Shown here: piece after piece, positions 22,189 to 52,976 of the stretch
Layout of the letters: every line of letters begins with the position of its first letter
How positions within the stretch are numbered: the first letter of the stretch is position 1
Virus record (IMG/VR): IMGVR_UViG_3300028364_000020
Coordinates: 41,510-105,509 of that record
DNA length: 64,000 nucleotides
Reading direction: 5' to 3' (one strand)
Source: a virus
Lineage: Duplodnaviria; Heunggongvirae; Uroviricota; Caudoviricetes
Translations under genes and position numbers: made by a program
The notes under the pieces: generated by a model
What the model was told of the DNA's origin: nothing
Database searches by the model: none
What the model saw: only the letters and a program-made list of their open reading frames with translations

Positions 22189-22884
22189 ATGGAAAATAAT
22201 AAGATAAAAAAAGTAATTCATTTAGCAGATATTCATCTTAGAACATATAGAATGCATGATGAATATAAAGAAGTGTTTCAAACACTTTTAGTTGACTTAA
22301 ACCAACTACTAAATAGCTATGTTAGAGAAGAAATTAGAATTGTAATTGCTGGAGACCTTGTTCACCAGAAGATTGTCATTTCCAACGAACAGTTAATGAT
22401 AGGTACTTGGTTCTTAAGAGAATTAGAAAAAATAGCCCCATTAATTATTATTGCTGGAAACCATGATTTATTAGAGAACAATAAAGATAGAATGGATAGC
22501 ATCTCGCCAATGGTTCAATTTTTGCCAGATAAAGAAATAAGTTTTTTTAAAGAAACAAAAGCTTATTTAGATAACAATATCGTTTGGTGTGTTTACTCTA
22601 TTTTTGAGGGTAATACTAGACCAAACATTGAGGCTGCTAGATTGGAATTTGGTGATGATAAAACATATATTGGTTTGTACCATGCAGCAGTAATGAATGC
22701 TAAAACGGATATAGGTTATGAAATAAATCATGGGGCCAGTTTATCTATCTTTGAAGGATGTGATTTGGTGATGTTAGGTGATATACATAAAAGAAATTTA
22801 TTTTTACATCAAGAAACATTAGAAATTTATGAAGATGATTTAAGTAAATATATGGAAATGGGTTGGGAAATTGATAACGATTAA
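22189..22884 (+). CDS. sbcD: SbcD/Mre11-like nuclease (gp47-like), N-terminal part
   Basis: Calcineurin-like phosphoesterase motifs are present: ADIHL (I), GDLVH (II), AGNHD (III) and GDIH (V). The ORF stops prematurely at 231 aa. Confidence 0.75.
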   Translation: MENNKIKKVIHLADIHLRTYRMHDEYKEVFQTLLVDLNQLLNSYVREEIRIVIAGDLVHQKIVISNEQLMIGTWFLRELEKIAPLIIIAGNHDLLENNKDRMDSISPMVQFLPDKEISFFKETKAYLDNNIVWCVYSIFEGNTRPNIEAARLEFGDDKTYIGLYHAAVMNAKTDIGYEINHGASLSIFEGCDLVMLGDIHKRNLFLHQETLEIYEDDLSKYMEMGWEIDND

Positions 22885-23119
22885 AAATATGGAAAAGAAA
22901 AAAATAAAAATTAAGAAAATAATCCCAATATGTTATAGTGGTTCTTTAATTCAGCAAAATTTTGGTGAAAAAATTTCCAATCATGGTTTTTTGTTATGGG
23001 ATGTACAAACAAAAACATTTACAGAACATGAAGTCGCAAACAATTCACCTTATTATCAATTTAAAATCACGTCTTCTGATGACATAGAAAACGGATTAGA
23101 AAAAATAACAAACTTATAA
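22871..23119 (+). pseudogene. sbcD: SbcD C-terminal continuation in the +1 frame (frameshift or split gene)
   Basis: The +1 frame encodes IIPICYSGSLIQQNFGE, which matches the conserved YPGS region that follows motif V in SbcD/Mre11. A frame change is therefore implied near 22840-22900. Confidence 0.5.
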
Positions 23120-23343: not shown

Positions 23344-23677
23344 TAATATAACGATTCCAGAAAAATTAAACGCTGATATTTGGGAGTTTTGTCGAGCAAA
23401 TAATATAACAAATATAGAAGCTTTTATTAACAAAATTTTACAACAAGGTTTCACTGCTGAAAAATTTGGTTCCGTACCAATGTTTAAAGATAATAACTTA
23501 GATAAAAAAATAGAAGTTAAAGAAGAAATAGTTAAACCTAACGACAAAGAAAATAAAACGTTAAATAAGACAATTAATTCCTTAGAAAAAGAATTAAAAG
23601 AAACACTTGAAAAATTAGAAAATGTTAAAATTGAATTAGTAAAAGAAAAAAATAAAAAAGATATATATGGTGAATAA
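23336..23677 (+). CDS. hypothetical protein with a charged coiled-coil C-terminus
   Basis: 113-aa ORF with a K/E-rich C-terminus. Confidence 0.35.
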   Translation: MINNITIPEKLNADIWEFCRANNITNIEAFINKILQQGFTAEKFGSVPMFKDNNLDKKIEVKEEIVKPNDKENKTLNKTINSLEKELKETLEKLENVKIELVKEKNKKDIYGE

Positions 23678-26468
23678 TTTAATTTCTCCTTCTTCTAAAA
23701 TTAAAGTGTACTGGGATGACCAACCACACAATTACAGTAAAGAAGCTAAGATAAAAATAAGAAATTCAATTGCGAATAAATATGGTGTTAATAAAAACAA
23801 CATAACTATCATTTATCGACCTATTAAGATAAATGAAAATGGTGAAGTTATTGAAATAACTGGTGCTGGTATTGACAATATCATGGACATCAACTATCAA
23901 AGGTCACTAATGTTAGAATTGGTAACTAGAGATGGTAAAACTATTGATTTTAAACGCATATTAGCATTAGATGATAAAGTTAATGGTGAATTAAATTTAG
24001 ATTTAAATTCTACAAGTCAAAAAAGTTGGTCTATTAAATGGTTAATGATTGATAACTTTTTATCTTTTGGTGATGAAAATTTTATTCAATTCAGCAAACT
24101 AAATGGTTTAACTATTGTAAATTCAATTCCAGAAAATCAAGGTGGTAAGTGTTTGCGAGAAAATACTGACATAACGATAAGATATGATAAAGATGAAATA
24201 ATAAAAAAATTAGGTTTTTTACCAGATGAATTAAACGAAGAAATAACGATAGGTGAATTAAACGCTATTTATGAAAAATATGGAGATTTAGGGTTTAAGG
24301 TAGATACACCTTATGGTTTTAAAGATATTACTTGGTGTGGTATAACAGAAGAAAATGCTGATGTATATAGATGTGAACTTGAGGATGGAAAGTATGTAGA
24401 GGGTGCTGATTACCATAGGTTAAAAAAAGAAGATGGGGATTTTGTTGTTTTAAAAGAAATAGAAATTGGAACACCGATACAAACTATTGATGGGTTAAGT
24501 AAAGTTAAATCGATAGAATTAATGGATTTTAAAGATACCCTTTATGACATTCAAGTAGCTGAGGTACATCAGTATTATAGTAATGGTATTGTTTCACATA
24601 ACACAACTTTGACAATAGATGCAATAAAGTTTTTATTACACGGTAATACAACTAAAACAGATACTAATGAGCAAATATTTAATTCGTTCAGTGGTAAAAA
24701 TGAATTTACTGTTAGGGGTATGGTTGAAATAGATAGCGATGAAGTAATTATTGAAAGAAAACTAAAACGTAATGCTAAAAAAGGTGGTGGTTGGACAATA
24801 ACTAACAAAGTTAAATATTATAAATTACTACCAGATGGTGAAGAAGAAGAATTAAACGAAGAAAATGCTATTCAGACAAATAAAAAGATAAGGGAATCTA
24901 TTGGTTCTGAAAAAGACTTTGAAATGTTAGTTTTAGCTACAGAAAAAAATTTAGAGGACCTTATAGGACTTACAACTACTGAATCTGGTAAATTGTTAAC
25001 TAGACTTATTGGTTTAGAAGTATTAGAACATAAAGAAAAAGTTGTTAGAGAAATGTACAATCTTTTTTCTAAGAAAAAAAAGTCTAATGATTTTGACGTT
25101 GTTACTTTAACCACGGACATTGAAGACACTAATCTAAAGTTAATAGAATTAGAGAAATTAAATGTTGAGTTGTCAAATAAACTAACTGACACAAAGTTAA
25201 ATATAGAAAATAGTGTGAAAAAAGTTGAAAGTCACATTAATAATAAAGAAAAGATTGATGTTACGATAACTAATATGAATCCAGAATCTTTGGAAGCCGA
25301 CATTAAAATAATTACAGAAAAGGGAAAACTTCTAAATTTTACCATCTCTAACTTAAAAGAAAACTTAACGAATGTTGGTACTATTATTTACGATGAAGAC
25401 GAACATATTGAAGTAAACAAAAAATATAATGAATTAATAACTCAAAAAGTACTTACTACTTCCGATATTACACGCATTCGAAAAGTTGTTAGTAATTTAA
25501 TTAGTAGTGGTATCTGTCAAACTTGTGAGAGAAAATTAGATGACATTGACAACACAGCACACATCAACAAACATGAAATAGAACTAAATCTGTTAATATC
25601 TAAACTATCTAAAATAGAAAAAGAAGTTTATAACACAAATTTATCTTTATTGGCGTTTAATGATATTAAAAAAAGTGTTGATGATAAAAATAAATTAGAA
25701 TTAACAATAGATAGATATAGTGTTGATTTGGGAGCATTGCGTAATGATGTTGTGTCTAAAATGAATGACTTTAAGAAGTATAACATGAATTTAGACGCTA
25801 TCAGTTTAAACAAAAAATTAGATATCGAGATAAGTTACATCAAGACCGAATTAATCGTTCTGGAACGCTCAAAAGATGATACAATGAATAGTATTCAAAG
25901 AATATCCATTGATACAAAATCAGCTGCTGAGTCAATAATCATTAAAACCGATTTGATTGAAGTAATTAAGAAAGAAGAGGAAGTAGAAAAAATATTTAAA
26001 TTTTACATTGAACTAGTTGGTAAAAAAGGTATTAGCAAATTAGTCTTACGTTCTGTTTTACCTATTATTAACTCTGAAGTTCAAAGATTATTAGAGGATA
26101 TCGTAGATTTTGAGGTCGAGATTTTCATTAATGATAAAAACGATGTTCAGTTTCTAATAGTAAAAGATGAGGTATCTAATTTATTGAAATCTGGGTCTGG
26201 TTTAGAAAAAACGATAGCTAGTCTTGCACTTAGAGCTGTTTTGGGTAAAATTTCTTCCCTTCCAATGCCAAACTTTATTACCTTTGATGAAGTATTAGGT
26301 AAAATAGCCCCAGTAAATTTAGAAAAGTTAAGATTGTTATTTGATAAAATTAAAGACATGTATGATATTGTATTTTTTATTACTCACAACGACTTGGTCA
26401 AAGATTGGACAAAAAACATTATCACTGTAATTAAAAAAGATAATATCTCTAGTATTAATATAAAATAA
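23667..26468 (+). CDS. sbcC: SbcC/Rad50-like ATPase (gp46-like) containing a mini-intein in the P-loop
   Basis: The N-terminal Walker A is interrupted (...ENQGGK|C...HN|TTL...). There is a long central coiled coil. The C-terminal part carries an ABC signature (SGSGLE), a Walker B (ITFDEVLG) and an H-loop (FFITHN). Confidence 0.8.
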   Translation: MVNNLISPSSKIKVYWDDQPHNYSKEAKIKIRNSIANKYGVNKNNITIIYRPIKINENGEVIEITGAGIDNIMDINYQRSLMLELVTRDGKTIDFKRILALDDKVNGELNLDLNSTSQKSWSIKWLMIDNFLSFGDENFIQFSKLNGLTIVNSIPENQGGKCLRENTDITIRYDKDEIIKKLGFLPDELNEEITIGELNAIYEKYGDLGFKVDTPYGFKDITWCGITEENADVYRCELEDGKYVEGADYHRLKKEDGDFVVLKEIEIGTPIQTIDGLSKVKSIELMDFKDTLYDIQVAEVHQYYSNGIVSHNTTLTIDAIKFLLHGNTTKTDTNEQIFNSFSGKNEFTVRGMVEIDSDEVIIERKLKRNAKKGGGWTITNKVKYYKLLPDGEEEELNEENAIQTNKKIRESIGSEKDFEMLVLATEKNLEDLIGLTTTESGKLLTRLIGLEVLEHKEKVVREMYNLFSKKKKSNDFDVVTLTTDIEDTNLKLIELEKLNVELSNKLTDTKLNIENSVKKVESHINNKEKIDVTITNMNPESLEADIKIITEKGKLLNFTISNLKENLTNVGTIIYDEDEHIEVNKKYNELITQKVLTTSDITRIRKVVSNLISSGICQTCERKLDDIDNTAHINKHEIELNLLISKLSKIEKEVYNTNLSLLAFNDIKKSVDDKNKLELTIDRYSVDLGALRNDVVSKMNDFKKYNMNLDAISLNKKLDIEISYIKTELIVLERSKDDTMNSIQRISIDTKSAAESIIIKTDLIEVIKKEEEVEKIFKFYIELVGKKGISKLVLRSVLPIINSEVQRLLEDIVDFEVEIFINDKNDVQFLIVKDEVSNLLKSGSGLEKTIASLALRAVLGKISSLPMPNFITFDEVLGKIAPVNLEKLRLLFDKIKDMYDIVFFITHNDLVKDWTKNIITVIKKDNISSINIK
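24150..24602 (+). mobile_element. mini-intein (151 aa) inserted after the Walker A lysine of SbcC
   Basis: It starts with Cys (CLRENTDITI, block A). It ends with block G (NGIVSHN) and is followed by Thr as the +1 residue. The splice product would restore a GK-TT(L) P-loop. There is no homing-endonuclease domain because the element is too short. Confidence 0.7.
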
Positions 26469-27046: not shown

Positions 27047-27874
27047 ATGAATAAGAGATTTTTGAATTTTGATATTGAGGACAGTATATCAAAATATTTT
27101 AAAGAAGTTAAAAAAACAAATATTTTAACACAAGAAAAAGAAATTGAGTTGGCTATTAGAATTAGAAATGGTGATAATAAAGCAGTAGATGAATTAGTTA
27201 GTTCTAATTTGAAATTTGTTATATCTGTCGCAAAAGACTATCAAAATCAAGGTTTGGACCTACAAGATTTAATCAACGAGGGAAATTATGGTTTAATAAA
27301 AGCAGCACATAGATTTGACCACGATAAGGGTTTTAGATTTATTTCGTATGCTGTTTGGTGGGTTAAACAATCAATAATTAAAAGTTTAAACGACAATGCT
27401 AGAGTTGTTAGATTACCAACAAATGTTATAAATAAAATAAACAAATTAAATAAAGAAATATCTAAATTTGAGAATACGAACGAGAGAGAACCAATTTACC
27501 AAGAAATGCTGAGTGATGGGACCCTAATGGATAAAATGGTGTTCTTCCCAAAAGCAAGTTCTCTAAACCAAGTAATAAACGAAGATGGTGATGAGTTAAT
27601 TGAACTTATTCAAATAGAAGACGAAGAAGATGATTTAGAAATTAAAGATGATGTAAGAAACGAATTAAAAAAAACGTTGCTTATCTTAGATGAAAGAGAA
27701 AGAATTATAATTCAATCTTATTTTGGTATCAATTTAAATGAAGAAGAAATGACATTAGAAAAAATAGGTGAAACATACGATTTAACTAAAGAACGAATTC
27801 GTCAAATAAAAGAAAAAGCGATTAGGAAATTAAGATTTAACTCAAGTAGTTTACAACTATTAATTAAAAAGTAA
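27047..27874 (+). CDS. sigma-70 family RNA polymerase sigma factor
   Basis: Region 2 is present (DLINEGNYGLIKAAHRFDHDKGFRFISYAVWWVKQSI). Region 4 HTH is present (TLEKIGETYDLTKERIRQIKEKAIRKL). Confidence 0.85.
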   Translation: MNKRFLNFDIEDSISKYFKEVKKTNILTQEKEIELAIRIRNGDNKAVDELVSSNLKFVISVAKDYQNQGLDLQDLINEGNYGLIKAAHRFDHDKGFRFISYAVWWVKQSIIKSLNDNARVVRLPTNVINKINKLNKEISKFENTNEREPIYQEMLSDGTLMDKMVFFPKASSLNQVINEDGDELIELIQIEDEEDDLEIKDDVRNELKKTLLILDERERIIIQSYFGINLNEEEMTLEKIGETYDLTKERIRQIKEKAIRKLRFNSSSLQLLIKK

Positions 27875-39744: not shown

Positions 39745-41175
39745 ATGAGTACATTATTATCTGCTATGCAAACAAAGGATAAACTTACCTCTAACGGTAT
39801 GGTAACTAATTCTACATCATTAAACCATTGTGTTGATTTATTTTTTAATTTTGGTTCAATGAGAGGTAAGGATAAAAATAGGTTGATTAACTTGTTTGTA
39901 AAAGCCTATGATGAAGACCCTTTAACCGCTATGCGTTTATTATTTTGGGTTAGAGACGTTAGAAGCGGTGCTGGTGAGCGTCAGATATTTAAGGATATTA
40001 TGGTTTATTTGGCTTTGAATCGCACTAACGTTATGGGTAAAAACTTAAGTTTAGTTAGTGAATTTGGTAGATGGGATGATTTATTACCTCTATTTGGAAC
40101 ACCATTACAACTAAACGCTTTGACCTTAATTGAAGAAGCTTTAATCAATAAAGATTCTCTTTGTTCAAAATGGATGCCAAGACCAAATTCTAATGTATTG
40201 ATTAAAAGAACTCAAGCAAATACGTTAAGAAATCATTTACGTTTATCACCTAAAGAATATCGTAAAATGTTAGCTGAAAATTCAAACACAGTAGAACAAT
40301 TAATGTGTGGTAAAGAATTTGATAAAATAGAGTATTCTAAATTACCATCTAAAGCGATGAGTGATTTAATGAAAACTTTCTATAGAAACGATTATGTTCG
40401 TTTTAAAAATTACTTGGAAAGTGTTAATAAAGGGGAAAGTAAAATAAATGCTGGTGCGTTATACCCATATGATGTAATAAAAAACCTTAAACAAGGTAAT
40501 TTTATTGGTGCTAATTCACAATGGAATGCTTTACCTAACTATATGGAAGGTTCGTTAGAAAGATTATTACCAATCGTAGATGTTTCTGGGTCTATGTCTT
40601 GTTCAGCTGGTGGTAGTGATTCTATAAGTTGTATGGATGTCGCTATTTCACTAGGTTTATATATTTCTGAAAGAAACATAGGTGTGTTTAAAGATTCTTT
40701 CATCACATTTTCTAGTTCACCAACACTACAAGTCCTTAAAGGGTCTTTACTAGAGCGTCATAACCAATTAAAGTTAAGTGATTGGGGTATGAACACAAAT
40801 ATCGAAGCTACATTTAACTTAATATTAGAAAAAGCTATTGAGGGTAATGTACCAGAGAGTGAAATGCCAACTATGATTATTATTTTATCAGATATGGAAT
40901 TTGACTATTGTAGTTCTAATAATAACGACACAGCTTTAGATATGATAAACTCTAACTTTGAAAAAGCTGGGTATAAGACACCTAAAATTTCTTTTTGGGA
41001 TTTAAATTCATCAAATTCAAATTCTCCAGTTAAATTTGACGAAAAAGGAACATGTTTAGTTTCAGGTTTTTCCACTTCTATTTTAAAGAGTTTATTATCT
41101 GGTCAATCTATGACACCATTATCTATGATGATGTCCGTAATTGGAGAAGAAAGATATTCAAAAGTTTCGATATAA
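39745..41175 (+). CDS. vWA-domain protein with a MIDAS motif, N-terminal region possibly TROVE/Ro-like
   Basis: The IVDVSGSMS motif matches the DxSxS MIDAS site. The N-terminal region has LFWVRDVRSGAGERQ. The domain order resembles Ro60/DUF2828-type proteins, but the TROVE assignment is uncertain. Confidence 0.5.
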   Translation: MSTLLSAMQTKDKLTSNGMVTNSTSLNHCVDLFFNFGSMRGKDKNRLINLFVKAYDEDPLTAMRLLFWVRDVRSGAGERQIFKDIMVYLALNRTNVMGKNLSLVSEFGRWDDLLPLFGTPLQLNALTLIEEALINKDSLCSKWMPRPNSNVLIKRTQANTLRNHLRLSPKEYRKMLAENSNTVEQLMCGKEFDKIEYSKLPSKAMSDLMKTFYRNDYVRFKNYLESVNKGESKINAGALYPYDVIKNLKQGNFIGANSQWNALPNYMEGSLERLLPIVDVSGSMSCSAGGSDSISCMDVAISLGLYISERNIGVFKDSFITFSSSPTLQVLKGSLLERHNQLKLSDWGMNTNIEATFNLILEKAIEGNVPESEMPTMIIILSDMEFDYCSSNNNDTALDMINSNFEKAGYKTPKISFWDLNSSNSNSPVKFDEKGTCLVSGFSTSILKSLLSGQSMTPLSMMMSVIGEERYSKVSI

Positions 41176-41264: not shown

Positions 41265-41753
41265 ATGAAAACATATAAAATGGATATAAAGGTAAAAGAG
41301 ATTTCTAGAATATTAAAGGATGATGGGTTAACAACATCAGAATATCTAGTTTATTTATTAATTGATAACAAGAATATTGAATGTCATGAAGTTTATGGGG
41401 AAACGGAGTTAGATGAAACATTATTAACATTATTTAATCAGTTTTTGTTAGATACAAATAATGTAACCTATGAAAGAATTAAAGAACCAATTAAAGATTA
41501 TCCATTGATTATTGTCTTTTATTTAGATGTTGATTTAATGAAAAACTCGGCTATTATCACACCATTTGTTGAGGCTGTAAACAACCTACTAGATTTTAAA
41601 AAAGCTAACGCAATTGCCTTATTTCTCCCTACAAACGGTGAAGAACGTGTTGAGTGTATTAACCCTATTTTAGTTCCAGAACTAGATATGAATAAAATAA
41701 ATAACATGATTGATGATATTAAAAAGCAATTTTCAATCGGTACTGAAAAGTAA
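41265..41753 (+). CDS. hypothetical protein
   Basis: 162-aa ORF. Confidence 0.35.
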   Translation: MKTYKMDIKVKEISRILKDDGLTTSEYLVYLLIDNKNIECHEVYGETELDETLLTLFNQFLLDTNNVTYERIKEPIKDYPLIIVFYLDVDLMKNSAIITPFVEAVNNLLDFKKANAIALFLPTNGEERVECINPILVPELDMNKINNMIDDIKKQFSIGTEK

Positions 41754-51404: not shown

Positions 51405-51492
51405 GGAGAGCATCTGGTCGGATGAAGAGCTTGTTTTGAAAACAAGTAAGTCGGGTAATACTGGCTTGAGGGTTCGAATCCCTCGCTCTCTT
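51405..51492 (+). tRNA. tRNA-Ser (anticodon TGA), class II with a long variable arm
   Basis: The acceptor pairs GGAGAGC with GCTCTCT (G1-U72). The anticodon arm is cttgt-tttgaaa-acaag (U33, anticodon TGA, A37). The variable arm is about 20 nt. The T-arm is GAGGGTTCGAATCCCTC. Confidence 0.6.
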
Positions 51493-51528
51493 CAATAAAA
51501 TCATTAATATATTTTATTAAATTAATAT

Positions 51529-51598
51529 ACATCGCTGGTGAAATGTTATCATTTTAATGGCCAAAATTAAAGTTCTGAGTTCGATTCTTGGTTGATGT
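51529..51598 (+). tRNA. tRNA-like sequence (irregular, possible pseudo-tRNA)
   Basis: The T-loop is TTCGATT. The acceptor-like pairing is acatcgc with ttgatgt (6/7). A candidate anticodon loop ggccaaa lacks U33. Confidence 0.25.
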
Positions 51599-51696
51599 GC
51601 AAAAAGATTAAAAAGTTTTTAAATGGTTGAAATTACCATACTTGATACGGTAAAGTCCGATAACTTAGTTAATCTATATATGGTGATTGTAGTCCG

Positions 51697-51770
51697 TAAT
51701 GGTAGCGGGGTTGGTTGTGAGCCAATTGTCAGGAATGACCTTGCGGGTTCGAGTCCCGTTTTTCACCAAC
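51697..51770 (+). tRNA. tRNA-like sequence with a long variable arm (anticodon loop ttgtgag, possibly GTG), irregular acceptor
   Basis: The T-arm is GCGGGTTCGAGTCCCGT. The D-loop cgtaatggtag is Leu/Tyr-like. A candidate anticodon stem-loop is gttgg-ttgtgag-ccaat. The acceptor pairing has two U-U mismatches. Confidence 0.3.
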
Positions 51771-51804
51771 TTTCGATGTTAACTCACCCCCACTTGGTGA
51801 AAGT

Positions 51805-51859
51805 TGGAAACAGATAATGCTGGCTAAGTAGTTAATAAACGTTCATTGATGTATTGGTT
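51805..51859 (+). repeat. conserved ~55-nt post-tRNA element, copy 1 (tggaaacag...gctggcta...ttaataaa...ttcattgat..attggtt)
   Basis: It is near-identical to 52314..52371. It is preceded by an extended hairpin at 51763-51803. Confidence 0.6.
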
Positions 51860-51957
51860 ATAATATTTAAATACTTTTGAGATGTAGATGGTTTAAAATA
51901 ATTTTGGTTTGATGTCTTAATTACTATAAAGAAATACACGATGAAGAGAATAATGGG

Positions 51958-52037
51958 TAGTACGCAGACCATCCTGATAAGATGGATAACTTGTATCGGT
52001 GTTGAAAAAGATGGGTTCGACTCCCTCCTACCCAACA
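51958..52037 (+). tRNA. tRNA-like sequence (candidate anticodon GAT, irregular D and T arms)
   Basis: The acceptor pairs TGGGTAG with CTACCCA perfectly. A clean anticodon arm ccatc-ctgataa-gatgg would give GAT. The other arms are non-canonical. Confidence 0.3.
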
Positions 52038-52098
52038 AAGCATGATGGTTTTGTATTTTGGGTTCGAGGGCCAATATACCTACTAAATTAAAATAAAT

Positions 52099-52171
52099 AC
52101 GGGATAGCATAATGGTATGCACCAAGACTCCAAATCTTCGGAAGGATAGAGTTCGTTTCTCTAATCTCGTG
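52099..52171 (+). tRNA. tRNA-Trp (anticodon CCA)
   Basis: The acceptor pairs ACGGGAT with ATCTCGT (one G-U). The D-arm is cata-atgg-tatg. The anticodon loop is ctccaaa (U33, CCA, A37). The T-arm is tagag-ttcgttt-ctcta. Confidence 0.5.
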
Positions 52172-52205
52172 CTAATAAATTGAAACAACAATTTAAATAA
52201 ATAAT

Positions 52206-52276
52206 TCTTCTATGGTGAAATGGTATCACGTTTGATTGTTAATCAATTATTTCCAGTTCGAGTCTGGATGGGAGAG
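52206..52276 (+). tRNA. tRNA-Asn (anticodon GTT)
   Basis: The acceptor pairs TCTTCTA with TGGGAGA (two G-U). The D-arm is gtga-aatggta-tcac. The anticodon loop is ttgttaa (U33, GTT, A37). The T-arm is tccag-ttcgagt-ctgga. Confidence 0.55.
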
Positions 52277-52313
52277 GGTCGTCAAAATTAATCTACTTCC
52301 ACGAAGTGACGAC

Positions 52314-52371
52314 TGGAAACAGGTAAAGCTGGCTAGACGATTAATAAAAATAGTTCATTGATAGATTGGTT
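52314..52371 (+). repeat. conserved ~55-nt post-tRNA element, copy 2
   Basis: It is near-identical to 51805..51859. It is preceded by a perfect hairpin gtcgtca...tgacgac at 52278-52313, immediately after tRNA-Asn. Confidence 0.6.
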
Positions 52372-52380
52372 ACATGGCGT

Positions 52381-52445
52381 AGCTTATTGGAAAAGATTCA
52401 TCACTCATAAGGATGAACAAATGTGTTCGACTCACATATACGCTA
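52381..52445 (+). tRNA. tRNA-like sequence (candidate anticodon CAT, reduced D-arm)
   Basis: The acceptor pairs agcttat with atacgct (6/7). The T-arm is atgtg-ttcgact-cacat. The anticodon loop is ctcataa (U33, CAT, A37) with an A-G closing pair. Only 65 nt. Confidence 0.3.
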
Positions 52446-52493
52446 CTTTTATTTTTTTTTTATGTTTAATACATTTATAAATAAAATAAACTT

Positions 52494-52566
52494 GGGGATA
52501 TAGTTTAAATGAATAAAATTCTGGTCTACGGAATCAGTGATTTGGGTTTGAATCCCAATAACCCTA
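52494..52566 (+). tRNA. tRNA-like sequence (anticodon ambiguous, possibly TCT)
   Basis: The T-arm is ttggg-tttgaat-cccaa. The acceptor pairs ggggata with taaccct, with one mismatch. The anticodon stem cannot be assigned cleanly. Confidence 0.3.
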
Positions 52567-52572
52567 CAAATT

Positions 52573-52645
52573 GGCTCTATAATGTAATTGGATAACATAT
52601 ATCTCTTCTAAAGATATATTCTAGGTTCGAATCCTAGTGGGGTCA
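52573..52645 (+). tRNA. tRNA-Arg (anticodon TCT)
   Basis: The acceptor pairs GGCTCTA with TGGGGTC (three G-U). The D-arm is atgt-aattggata-acat. The anticodon arm is tatct-cttctaa-agata (U33, TCT, A37). The T-arm is CTAGGTTCGAATCCTAG. Confidence 0.6.
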
Positions 52646-52709
52646 CAAAATAAAAAAAAATATTTATTAAAATTAATCACTAAATACTTTTTTTTATGAA
52701 AGATTACTT

Positions 52710-52718
52710 GTACCTTTG
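52710..52718 (+). promoter_or_regulatory. Bacteroidetes-type -7 promoter motif GTACCTTTG
   Basis: The consensus TAnnTTTG. It sits upstream of the tRNA-Ser(GCT) region. Confidence 0.4.
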
Positions 52719-52816
52719 TACAAGCAAAAAAAGAAAGCCTAATATCTTAGTTGCTCAGAGCATCTAATAGGTAGAAAAGTTTTTAGTCATTGAAATATTA
52801 GTTTATAATAAAACAT

Positions 52817-52898
52817 AGTGAGGTGCTAGAATGGTAATAGAAAATTCTGCTAAAGTTTGGTCGGAAACGGCTTATGGGTTCGAATCCCATTCTCACTA
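52817..52898 (+). tRNA. tRNA-Ser (anticodon GCT), class II
   Basis: The acceptor pairs AGTGAGG with TCTCACT (one G-U). The anticodon arm is aaatt-ctgctaa-agttt (U33, GCT, A37). The long variable arm is gtcg-gaaa-cggc. The T-arm is ATGGGTTCGAATCCCAT. Confidence 0.6.
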
Positions 52899-52976
52899 CT
52901 AAGGTAGATTTAAATAAAACGTTAAAATAAATAAAAAAATCATTTTTTTTTTTATTGATTATCAAAAAAAAAGTAA

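Follow-up and report, generated by a model that had tools for sequence, protein, structure and literature searches.

A phage ATPase gene interrupted in its Walker A motif

A Rad50/SbcC-like ATPase gene whose ATP-binding loop is interrupted by a predicted mini-intein lies in a 64,000-nucleotide (nt) stretch of DNA from a virus of the class Caudoviricetes (IMG/VR record IMGVR_UViG_3300028364_000020, positions 41,510 to 105,509). We refer to this stretch as a whole as the window. The gene is one unbroken forward open reading frame (ORF) of 933 amino acids (aa; Table 1), and the 90% cluster that contains its product carries the label 'hypothetical protein'. A preliminary description of the DNA had placed a 151-aa insert in the Walker A motif of this protein and had argued that the annotated length is wrong unless splicing is considered. 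Its coordinates are exact and the junction strings it quoted are found in the ORF, which reads IPENQGGK / CLRENTDITIRYD ... YYSNGIVSHN / TTLTIDAIKF. The insert sits in frame between the Lys and the Thr of Walker A (NQGGK/TTLTIDA). Deletion of residues 162-312 yields NSIPENQGGKTTLTIDA and leaves a 782-aa protein that reads ...NSIPENQGGKTTLTIDAIKF..., in which Thr313, the predicted +1 nucleophile, completes Walker A as GGK-TT.

The distribution of the insert among homologues is sporadic. The spliced sequence has 1248 relatives among 5.8 billion proteins, and the homologue counts given here refer to the best 120 of them (64-68% identical). In 119 of these 120, GGK[TS][TS] runs unbroken into the conserved C-terminal host sequence, or C-extein ([LMF][TS]ID[AS]), which is the same contiguous GK-TT loop that the preliminary description expected on removal of the insert. 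None of the 119 retains an equivalent 150-aa insertion, and their lengths of 782-792 aa compare with 782 aa for the spliced window product. The sole interrupted protein among the best 120 (P0001; 935 aa, extein 94% identical) is broken at the same peptide bond. Similarly, among the matches listed from a search with a profile of the exteins, 6 of 54 IMG/VR Rad50 loci carry the element and about 48 are without it. Sporadic insertion with such precise boundaries is the pattern of a mobile intervening sequence and not of a lineage-specific domain. The G+C content, overall and at third codon positions, of the insert is not notably different from that of the exteins, and composition therefore gives no evidence for a foreign origin.

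Evidence that the insert is an intein

Judged by its sequence, the insert is an intein, with a match far beyond chance. The hidden Markov model (HMM) for the C-terminal splicing region of inteins (TIGR01443, intein_Cterm) gives the insert 23.5 bits, above its cut-off of 15.6. A phmmer search of the PDB sequences gave top matches that are all inteins, namely VidaL (6VGV, E 2.5e-7) and gp41-1 (E 3.5e-5), with further matches to the consensus Cat intein and Npu DnaE. Translated searches (tblastn) of phage genomes matched 193 records at 27-37% identity; nearly all of the matches listed fall in large-terminase genes, several of them annotated with Hint or intein signatures. The AlphaFold2 model, built from an 11-sequence alignment, has a mean predicted local distance difference test score of 89.3 and forms a single compact β-rich domain with a Hint fold. 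The top 50 PDB matches of this model in Foldseek are inteins only, the best again being VidaL (E 8e-10, template modelling score 0.69-0.72). The earlier proposal of a Hint-domain mini-intein, too small at 151 aa for a homing endonuclease, is borne out by these HMM matches and by the single Hint fold of the model. No PHROG family exists for the intein itself, and the 64-kb window holds no second intein.

The residues expected to carry out splicing are present. Cys1 occurs in every allele that has an N-terminal part, and His89, Asp133, His150 and Asn151 are invariant in a 9-sequence, intein-only family alignment. Block B (GADYHRL) aligns with CSEEHLF of gp41-1 and CAFNHMI of VidaL. Blocks F and G read LYD133IQV...NGIVSH150N151 and are followed by Thr+1, which is invariant in the family except for Ser in more distant alleles. 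The Cys at the first position, the block B and G segments and the +1 Thr had all been recognized in the preliminary description, as had a block-A-like start, for which Cys1, the pattern of the sequence and the predicted fold are the evidence. Three Cys besides Cys1 lie within the intein. A class 3 intein, suggested by a 'WC' dipeptide, was ruled out, as Cys1 is present and WC is not conserved in the family.

The intein is under purifying selection. Compared with the allele of a related locus (L003; loci are numbered with the prefix L), the ratio of nonsynonymous to synonymous substitution rates (dN/dS) is 0.145 over the 151 codons (dN 0.147, dS 1.01). For the flanking exteins it is 0.05-0.10, with dS 0.31-0.38.

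The host protein

The preliminary description had named the interrupted protein a homologue of gp46/SbcC, and we likewise assign it by sequence to the Rad50/SbcC/T4 gp46 family, on the strength of its motifs, which are in place along the spliced product, and of an SbcD-like partner gene (Table 1). The spliced sequence matches phrog_77 ('SbcC-like subunit of palindrome specific endonuclease') with E 2.9e-42. A 24-member profile of the extein family matches the Rad50 ATPase 3AUX in the PDB (E 4.4e-6) over signature, Walker B and H-loop, and weakly also the Rad50 zinc hook 1L8D. A single-sequence phmmer search of the PDB with the spliced extein gave nothing and the Pfam family SbcC_Walker_B reached only E 0.2, which marks the protein as a divergent member of the family. 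Ahead of the Rad50 head lies an N-terminal extension of ~118 aa (23667-24020) that is kept in all 120 best homologues and can be aligned to a protein of the uncultured 735-kb phage LR756501 (26% identity, residues 1-417).

Table 1. Position of the interrupted gene, its parts and associated elements (nt of the window unless stated otherwise).
Feature	Position	Strand	Remarks
SbcD/Mre11-like nuclease gene	22189..23119	+	two overlapping ORFs in different frames, 22189-22884 and 22871-23119
Precursor, Rad50/SbcC-like ATPase with predicted intein	23667..26468	+	933 aa; spliced product would be 782 aa
N-extein, aa 1-161	23667..24149	+	conserved extension of ~118 aa, start of Rad50 head, first half of Walker A
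NQGGK, first half of Walker A	24135-24149	+	Lys161 is the -1 residue
Predicted mini-intein, class 1 type, 151 aa (ORF residues 162-312)	24150..24602	+	from HMM, sequence and fold
Intein landmark codons	Cys1 24150-24152; block B His89 24414-24416; block F Asp133 24546-24548; His150-Asn151 24597-24602	+	ORF codon 162 TGT (Cys) 24150-24152; 312 AAC (Asn) 24600-24602; 313 ACA (Thr) 24603-24605
Intein residues 1-29	24150..24236	+	β1-β2, helix α1, loop ...GFLPDELN (secondary structure taken from the AlphaFold2 model); matches the separate 29-aa N-intein of split alleles
Intein residues 30-151 (EEITIGEL...IVSHN)	24237..24602	+	matches the separate 122-aa C-intein of split alleles
C-extein, aa 313-933	24603..26468	+	Thr313, coiled coil with CxxC hook, C-terminal ATPase lobe
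Walker A	spliced aa 157-163		
CxxC hook	spliced aa 466-469		middle of coiled coil
Signature SGSGLE	spliced aa 691		
Walker B FITFDE	spliced aa 719-724		
H-loop FFITH	spliced aa 752-756		
Conserved cassette element	L001 1994-2067		same position in L010, L011, L013-L017, L019, L025 and L027; spacer of L009

Fractured alleles in related loci

Metagenome contigs and 61 IMG/VR loci provide the family context of the window intein. A search with the intein alone recovered short proteins whose initial Met lies at intein position ~30 and whose sequence runs on via ...YYSNGIVSHN to the Rad50 C-extein. The Rad50 gene is divided into three ORFs in about 20 loci (L001, L002, L010-L017 and L019-L027). The first encodes the N-extein and a 29-aa N-intein ending in ...GFLP(D/E)ELK-stop, the second is a free-standing ORF of ~336 aa between the intein halves, and the third encodes a Met followed by the 122-aa C-intein and the C-extein, starting with M(E/N/K)K(E)I.IG.L. 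The sequences indicate that in most related loci the intein, which occupies the same host-protein site as in the window, is naturally split after residue 29. The AlphaFold2 model puts this split point after helix α1 and the next loop, a position that would correspond to the atypical site called 'S2' and neither to the canonical endonuclease-insertion site nor to the S1 site of VidaL.

The intervening ORF combines an N-terminal helix-turn-helix-like region with a C-terminal ...IIEYNGDxYHGNP...WDSEY region. Six of 13 members give sub-threshold matches to the Pfam families DUF559 (best E 1.8e-4), REase_MTES_1575 and Vsr. The PDB, searched with single sequences and with a profile, yielded nothing significant, the best match being the DUF559 protein 3HRL at E 0.28, and for this reason the assignment as a Vsr/DUF559-like endonuclease is a weak one. 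Right after the N-intein stop lies a conserved element (...TTACCTTTTTGGTTAAAAGGTTATATTTATA...) with the inverted repeat ACCTTTT/AAAAGGT and then an AT-rich box. By analogy, it may be a hairpin or gene-control element like those upstream of free-standing endonuclease genes (PMC2677866). In L013, L014, L016 and L017 the endonuclease ORF is followed by an extra 220-520 nt before the C-intein begins, which suggests that the cassette of these alleles contains a further small ORF or other element.

Other alleles retain only part of this cassette. L009 has kept the 5' hairpin-like motif and has lost the ORF, in L018 all but the final ~25 nt of the endonuclease ORF is gone, and L006 has a 39-nt spacer in place of the endonuclease gene. 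In the window the ORF runs unbroken through the intein, so that the fractured arrangement is found in its relatives and not in the window itself. Neither a copy of the endonuclease gene nor the cassette hairpin motif occurs anywhere in the 64 kb.

Movement of the intein and origin of the window allele

Contiguous alleles occur in the window, L003-5, L007/8, L028, L029 and L060; these and the endonuclease-free alleles are interspersed with alleles that bear the endonuclease. We compared neighbour-joining (NJ) trees built from the C-intein (118 residues) and from the C-extein. The window intein is sister to the endonuclease-bearing allele of L010, the inteins being 89% and the exteins 40% identical. 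The host protein of L003, on the other hand, is 94% identical to that of the window and its intein only 81%, with an intein dS of 1.0 against 0.31-0.38 for the exteins. The contiguous L007 and the split L009 have nearly identical exteins and inteins from different clades. This disagreement between intein and extein trees indicates that the intein has moved horizontally between phage Rad50 genes.

We are confident of the overall explanation that the insert is a contiguous, endonuclease-free class 1 mini-intein that splices canonically and is an allele of a same-site family. The window element would thus be one of many alleles occupying this site in related uncultured phages, and in most of these alleles a free-standing gene for a Vsr/DUF559-like homing endonuclease would divide the intein after residue 29. 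The window allele itself would have been re-fused from a split allele, the origin towards which we lean slightly, or it would be a pre-invasion form. Following the canonical class 1 pathway, Cys1 would undergo an N-S acyl shift on the Lys161 carbonyl with the help of the block B His89, and the hydroxyl of Thr+1 would attack to form a branched ester. Cyclization of Asn151, aided by His150 and the block F Asp133, would release the 17-kDa intein, and an O-N shift would leave a native Lys-Thr bond, restoring NQGGKTT and an active 782-aa ATPase. The unspliced precursor should fail to bind ATP properly. The endonuclease would probably lose its target in such an allele, because the intein interrupts the P-loop coding sequence.

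Several observations weigh against this explanation in one or another of its parts. Splicing is predicted from residues, fold and selection, that is from sequence and model, and is not itself demonstrated. The Pfam family Intein_splicing (PF14890) matches with 27.8 bits (E 2.6e-6), which is under its gathering score of 35.8, and covers the C-terminal half only. The first ~30 intein residues lie outside every profile and sequence match, the Pfam and PDB matches covering ~30-151. The Thr of the block B TxxH motif is Ala in the window intein and Ala or Ser across the family. The endonuclease assignment lies below the Pfam cut-off. The direction of change, re-fusion versus an ancestral contiguous form, depends on the 118-residue NJ tree and the junction patterns; the three most distant alleles (L028, L029 and L060) are all contiguous; and the similarities of endonuclease and C-intein are partly congruent (Spearman 0.66) with clear exceptions.

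The last three points bear on the origin of the window allele. That it is the re-fused descendant of a naturally, atypically split intein from which the cassette was lost is, on present sequences, an evenly balanced proposition. A tenable possibility, though one to which we give somewhat less than even weight, is that the contiguous mini-intein of the window represents the ancestral, pre-invasion state and that the cassette was inserted after α1 in other lineages. The contiguity of the most divergent alleles speaks for such an ancestral state, and the exceptions to congruence do so as well: L014 and L017 share 89% identity in the endonuclease but 79% in the C-intein, and L014 and L015 share 92% in the C-intein but 59% in the endonuclease, which suggests a cassette that is mobile among existing inteins. 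The window junction, DEL/NEEITIG, is equally explained by an insertion of 'K-stop...Met'. However, the window allele is nested among endonuclease-bearing alleles as sister to L010, and loss of the cassette is documented by the remnants in L009 and L018. The contiguous junctions also differ in length (DEL-NEEITIG in the window, DE-ITIG in L007, ELK-KLENA-MKKIITI in L028), and that of L028 (...ELKKLENAMKKIITI) looks like a read-through of stop, spacer and Met.

Two further alternatives concern function. The intein could work as a switch, delaying or gating the activation of Rad50 in infection by conditional protein splicing, as proposed for the inteins of RadA and DnaB. Its position in the ATP loop makes activity strictly dependent on splicing, Cys1 and the three further Cys could in principle be redox-sensitive, and conditional splicing has been reported for P-loop and ATPase inteins (PMC4513877, PMC5790916, PMC6195587). 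We nevertheless consider a switch improbable: no sequence feature requires it, about 90% of the related phages lack the intein (among the best 120 homologues and the IMG/VR loci among the matches listed), and the sporadic occurrence and the disagreement between trees are in keeping with a selfish element. It is very improbable that the insert is a degenerate or inactive Hint-like domain, retained or cleaving only, in a pseudogene or in an ATPase that tolerates it. The reliance on sequence and model, the Pfam score and the block B Ala could be read in its favour, but all nucleophiles and assisting residues are present and invariant in the family, the dN/dS of the intein is low, the ORF is intact over 933 codons between exteins that are themselves constrained, VidaL with Ala at the same block B position is reported as active and fast-splicing (PMC13014065), and retention would very probably abolish ATP binding, since the insert splits a GK/T that is unbroken in 119 of the best 120 homologues.

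Comparison with known inteins

The element is a case of the known class 1 mini-intein as far as testable features go, and insertion between Lys and Thr of a P-loop is commonplace for inteins. Kelley et al. use the term 'classic' for P-loop inteins inserted here, where the invariant Lys of Walker A adjoins the nucleophilic Thr (PMC5050341). The inteins of mycobacteriophage TerL1-a and archaeal RadA occupy this same site, and their splicing likewise rebuilds the ATP site. These classic cases are found in terminase and RecA-type ATPases, whereas the window intein belongs to another intein lineage and interrupts a Rad50 head of the ABC/SMC type.

VidaL, a metagenomic and naturally, atypically split intein (PDB 6VGV/6VGW), is the best PDB match of the window intein in both sequence and structure. 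The two have in common the Ala-x-x-His block B, the GIVSH(N) C-terminus and a dependence on cysteine, although they are only ~26% identical. VidaL is split after β2, at the S1 site, with a 16-aa N-intein (PMC13014065), whereas the window intein is contiguous and its split relatives break after α1 with a 29-aa N-intein. A natural split after the first α-helix (S2) has been described for AceL-TerL and GOS-TerL (PMC13014065), and the split site of the fractured relatives is equivalent to theirs by secondary-structure position and the published description. The host of AceL-TerL and GOS-TerL is a terminase, whereas in the window it is Rad50/SbcC and the allele is predicted to splice in cis. Large-terminase inteins of T4-like, Campylobacter and Vibrio phages are 27-37% identical to the window intein.

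The arrangement in the relatives resembles the fractured genes of Dassa et al. 2009, in which the gene is split within an intein and a free-standing endonuclease gene, GIY-YIG or Vsr-like, separates the two parts (PMC2677866). L001, L002, L010-L017 and L019-L027 show the same arrangement with a Vsr/DUF559-like ORF in a phage DNA metabolism gene, and their cassettes carry a conserved hairpin-like element upstream of the endonuclease gene, as the fractured genes do. Hosts named in the same paper include gp41 helicase, IMPDH, DnaE, NrdA, NrdJ, DNA ligase and terminase (PMC2677866). Unlike these genes, the sbcC of the window is not itself fractured. Split inteins of the Dassa type, such as gp41-1 (88 + 37 aa), break at the canonical endonuclease-insertion site and not near the N-terminus.

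Phage Rad50/SbcC is probably a new intein host. 'Rad50' does not appear in the intein papers found by our literature search, including the surveys PMC4760082 and PMC5050341, supplementary tables being outside its scope, and the text of the fractured-genes paper (PMC2677866) contains none of 'Rad50', 'gp46' and 'SbcC'. Full-text searches gave no description of an intein in SbcC, Rad50 or gp46; supplementary tables and intein databases were outside their scope. Among the matches listed from 50,697 deposited phage genomes, relatives of the intein fall in terminases and, in addition, in gp204 of Salicola phage SCTP-2.

This protein (MF360958, gene 204; L067 2812-4782) is annotated as 'hypothetical protein'. 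By our reading of its sequence, it is UvsX/RecA-like, judging from its P-loop, and contains two unannotated inteins. The first reads ...FAGDSG/CLPEDA...GIVSHN/SGKS... and is the closest cultured-phage relative of the window intein among the matches listed (E 1e-8); the second reads ...ISGG/CLVADT...NVVSHN/SGQIF....

Implications for annotation and intein evolution

For annotation, the predicted products of the gene are a 782-aa Rad50/SbcC-like ATPase and a 17-kDa intein instead of a 933-aa 'hypothetical protein', and phage Rad50/SbcC joins the P-loop ATPases invaded at the classic Lys/Thr site. The window intein does not overturn current understanding. Its family context, with fractured genes and an atypical split site, should be of moderate interest to intein specialists and protein engineers. 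The allelic series at this one site is unusually complete, comprising empty, fractured with endonuclease, split without endonuclease and contiguous states, and it bears on the origin and decay of split inteins. If re-fusion is true, one site preserves the whole cycle, whose last stage is a cis-splicing mini-intein, re-fused and immune to the endonuclease, and the family would enlarge the very small group of natural split inteins known to have a short N-fragment, here of 29 aa. Few natural split inteins have N-fragments that peptide synthesis can reach (15-37 aa; PMC13014065). Split relatives of the window intein are candidates for protein engineering, for which the window allele could serve as a natural reference predicted to splice in cis.

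Neighbouring genes and phage lineage

The Rad50-like gene is preceded, at a distance of ~550 nt that includes two small ORFs, by an SbcD/Mre11-like nuclease gene. This nuclease gene is broken into two overlapping ORFs (231 and 82 aa), both of which match phrog_100 ('SbcD-like'), with extra residues at the break (...EIYEDDLSKYMEMGWEIDND-stop / MITIKNMEKKKIKIKK...). The gene is contiguous in one frame in more than 50 related loci. In L007/8 a 299-aa Vsr/DUF559-like, endonuclease-like ORF sits exactly at the break as a ~0.9-kb insert, and L025 has a ~0.9-kb gap at the same place. From these sequences, the SbcD-like gene of the window seems to be a fractured gene whose endonuclease has been lost, similar to the 'SbcD-like' fractured locus that Dassa et al. 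describe, which has no intein (PMC2677866). Both sbcCD genes of the window thus seem to carry vestiges of endonuclease-associated elements, of which no endonuclease gene survives. Downstream of the Rad50-like gene, at a distance of ~580 nt and with one 162-aa ORF between, lies a sigma-70-family gene (27047-27874, +), whose counterparts in L003-5 match Pfam Sigma70_r2/r4.

The preliminary description had attributed the DNA to a T4-like phage. This attribution is not supported, as eight of the ten large ORFs scanned are without a PHROG match. A megablast search of 50,697 phage records with 5 kb of sequence surrounding the gene produced nothing beyond a chance-like match of 36 nt, and the extein has its best match in this collection in the uncultured 735-kb phage mentioned above (26% identity). 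Related contigs reach ~360 kb, which together with the few PHROG matches suggests a poorly characterised jumbo-phage lineage. The window has a G+C content of 29.4%. A 476-aa ORF (39745-41175, +) matches phrog_850 ('RNA-binding protein') with E 1e-149, and a cluster of seven tRNA genes (51405-52899, +) comprises Ser-tga, His, Trp, Asn, Arg-acg, Arg-tct and Ser-gct.

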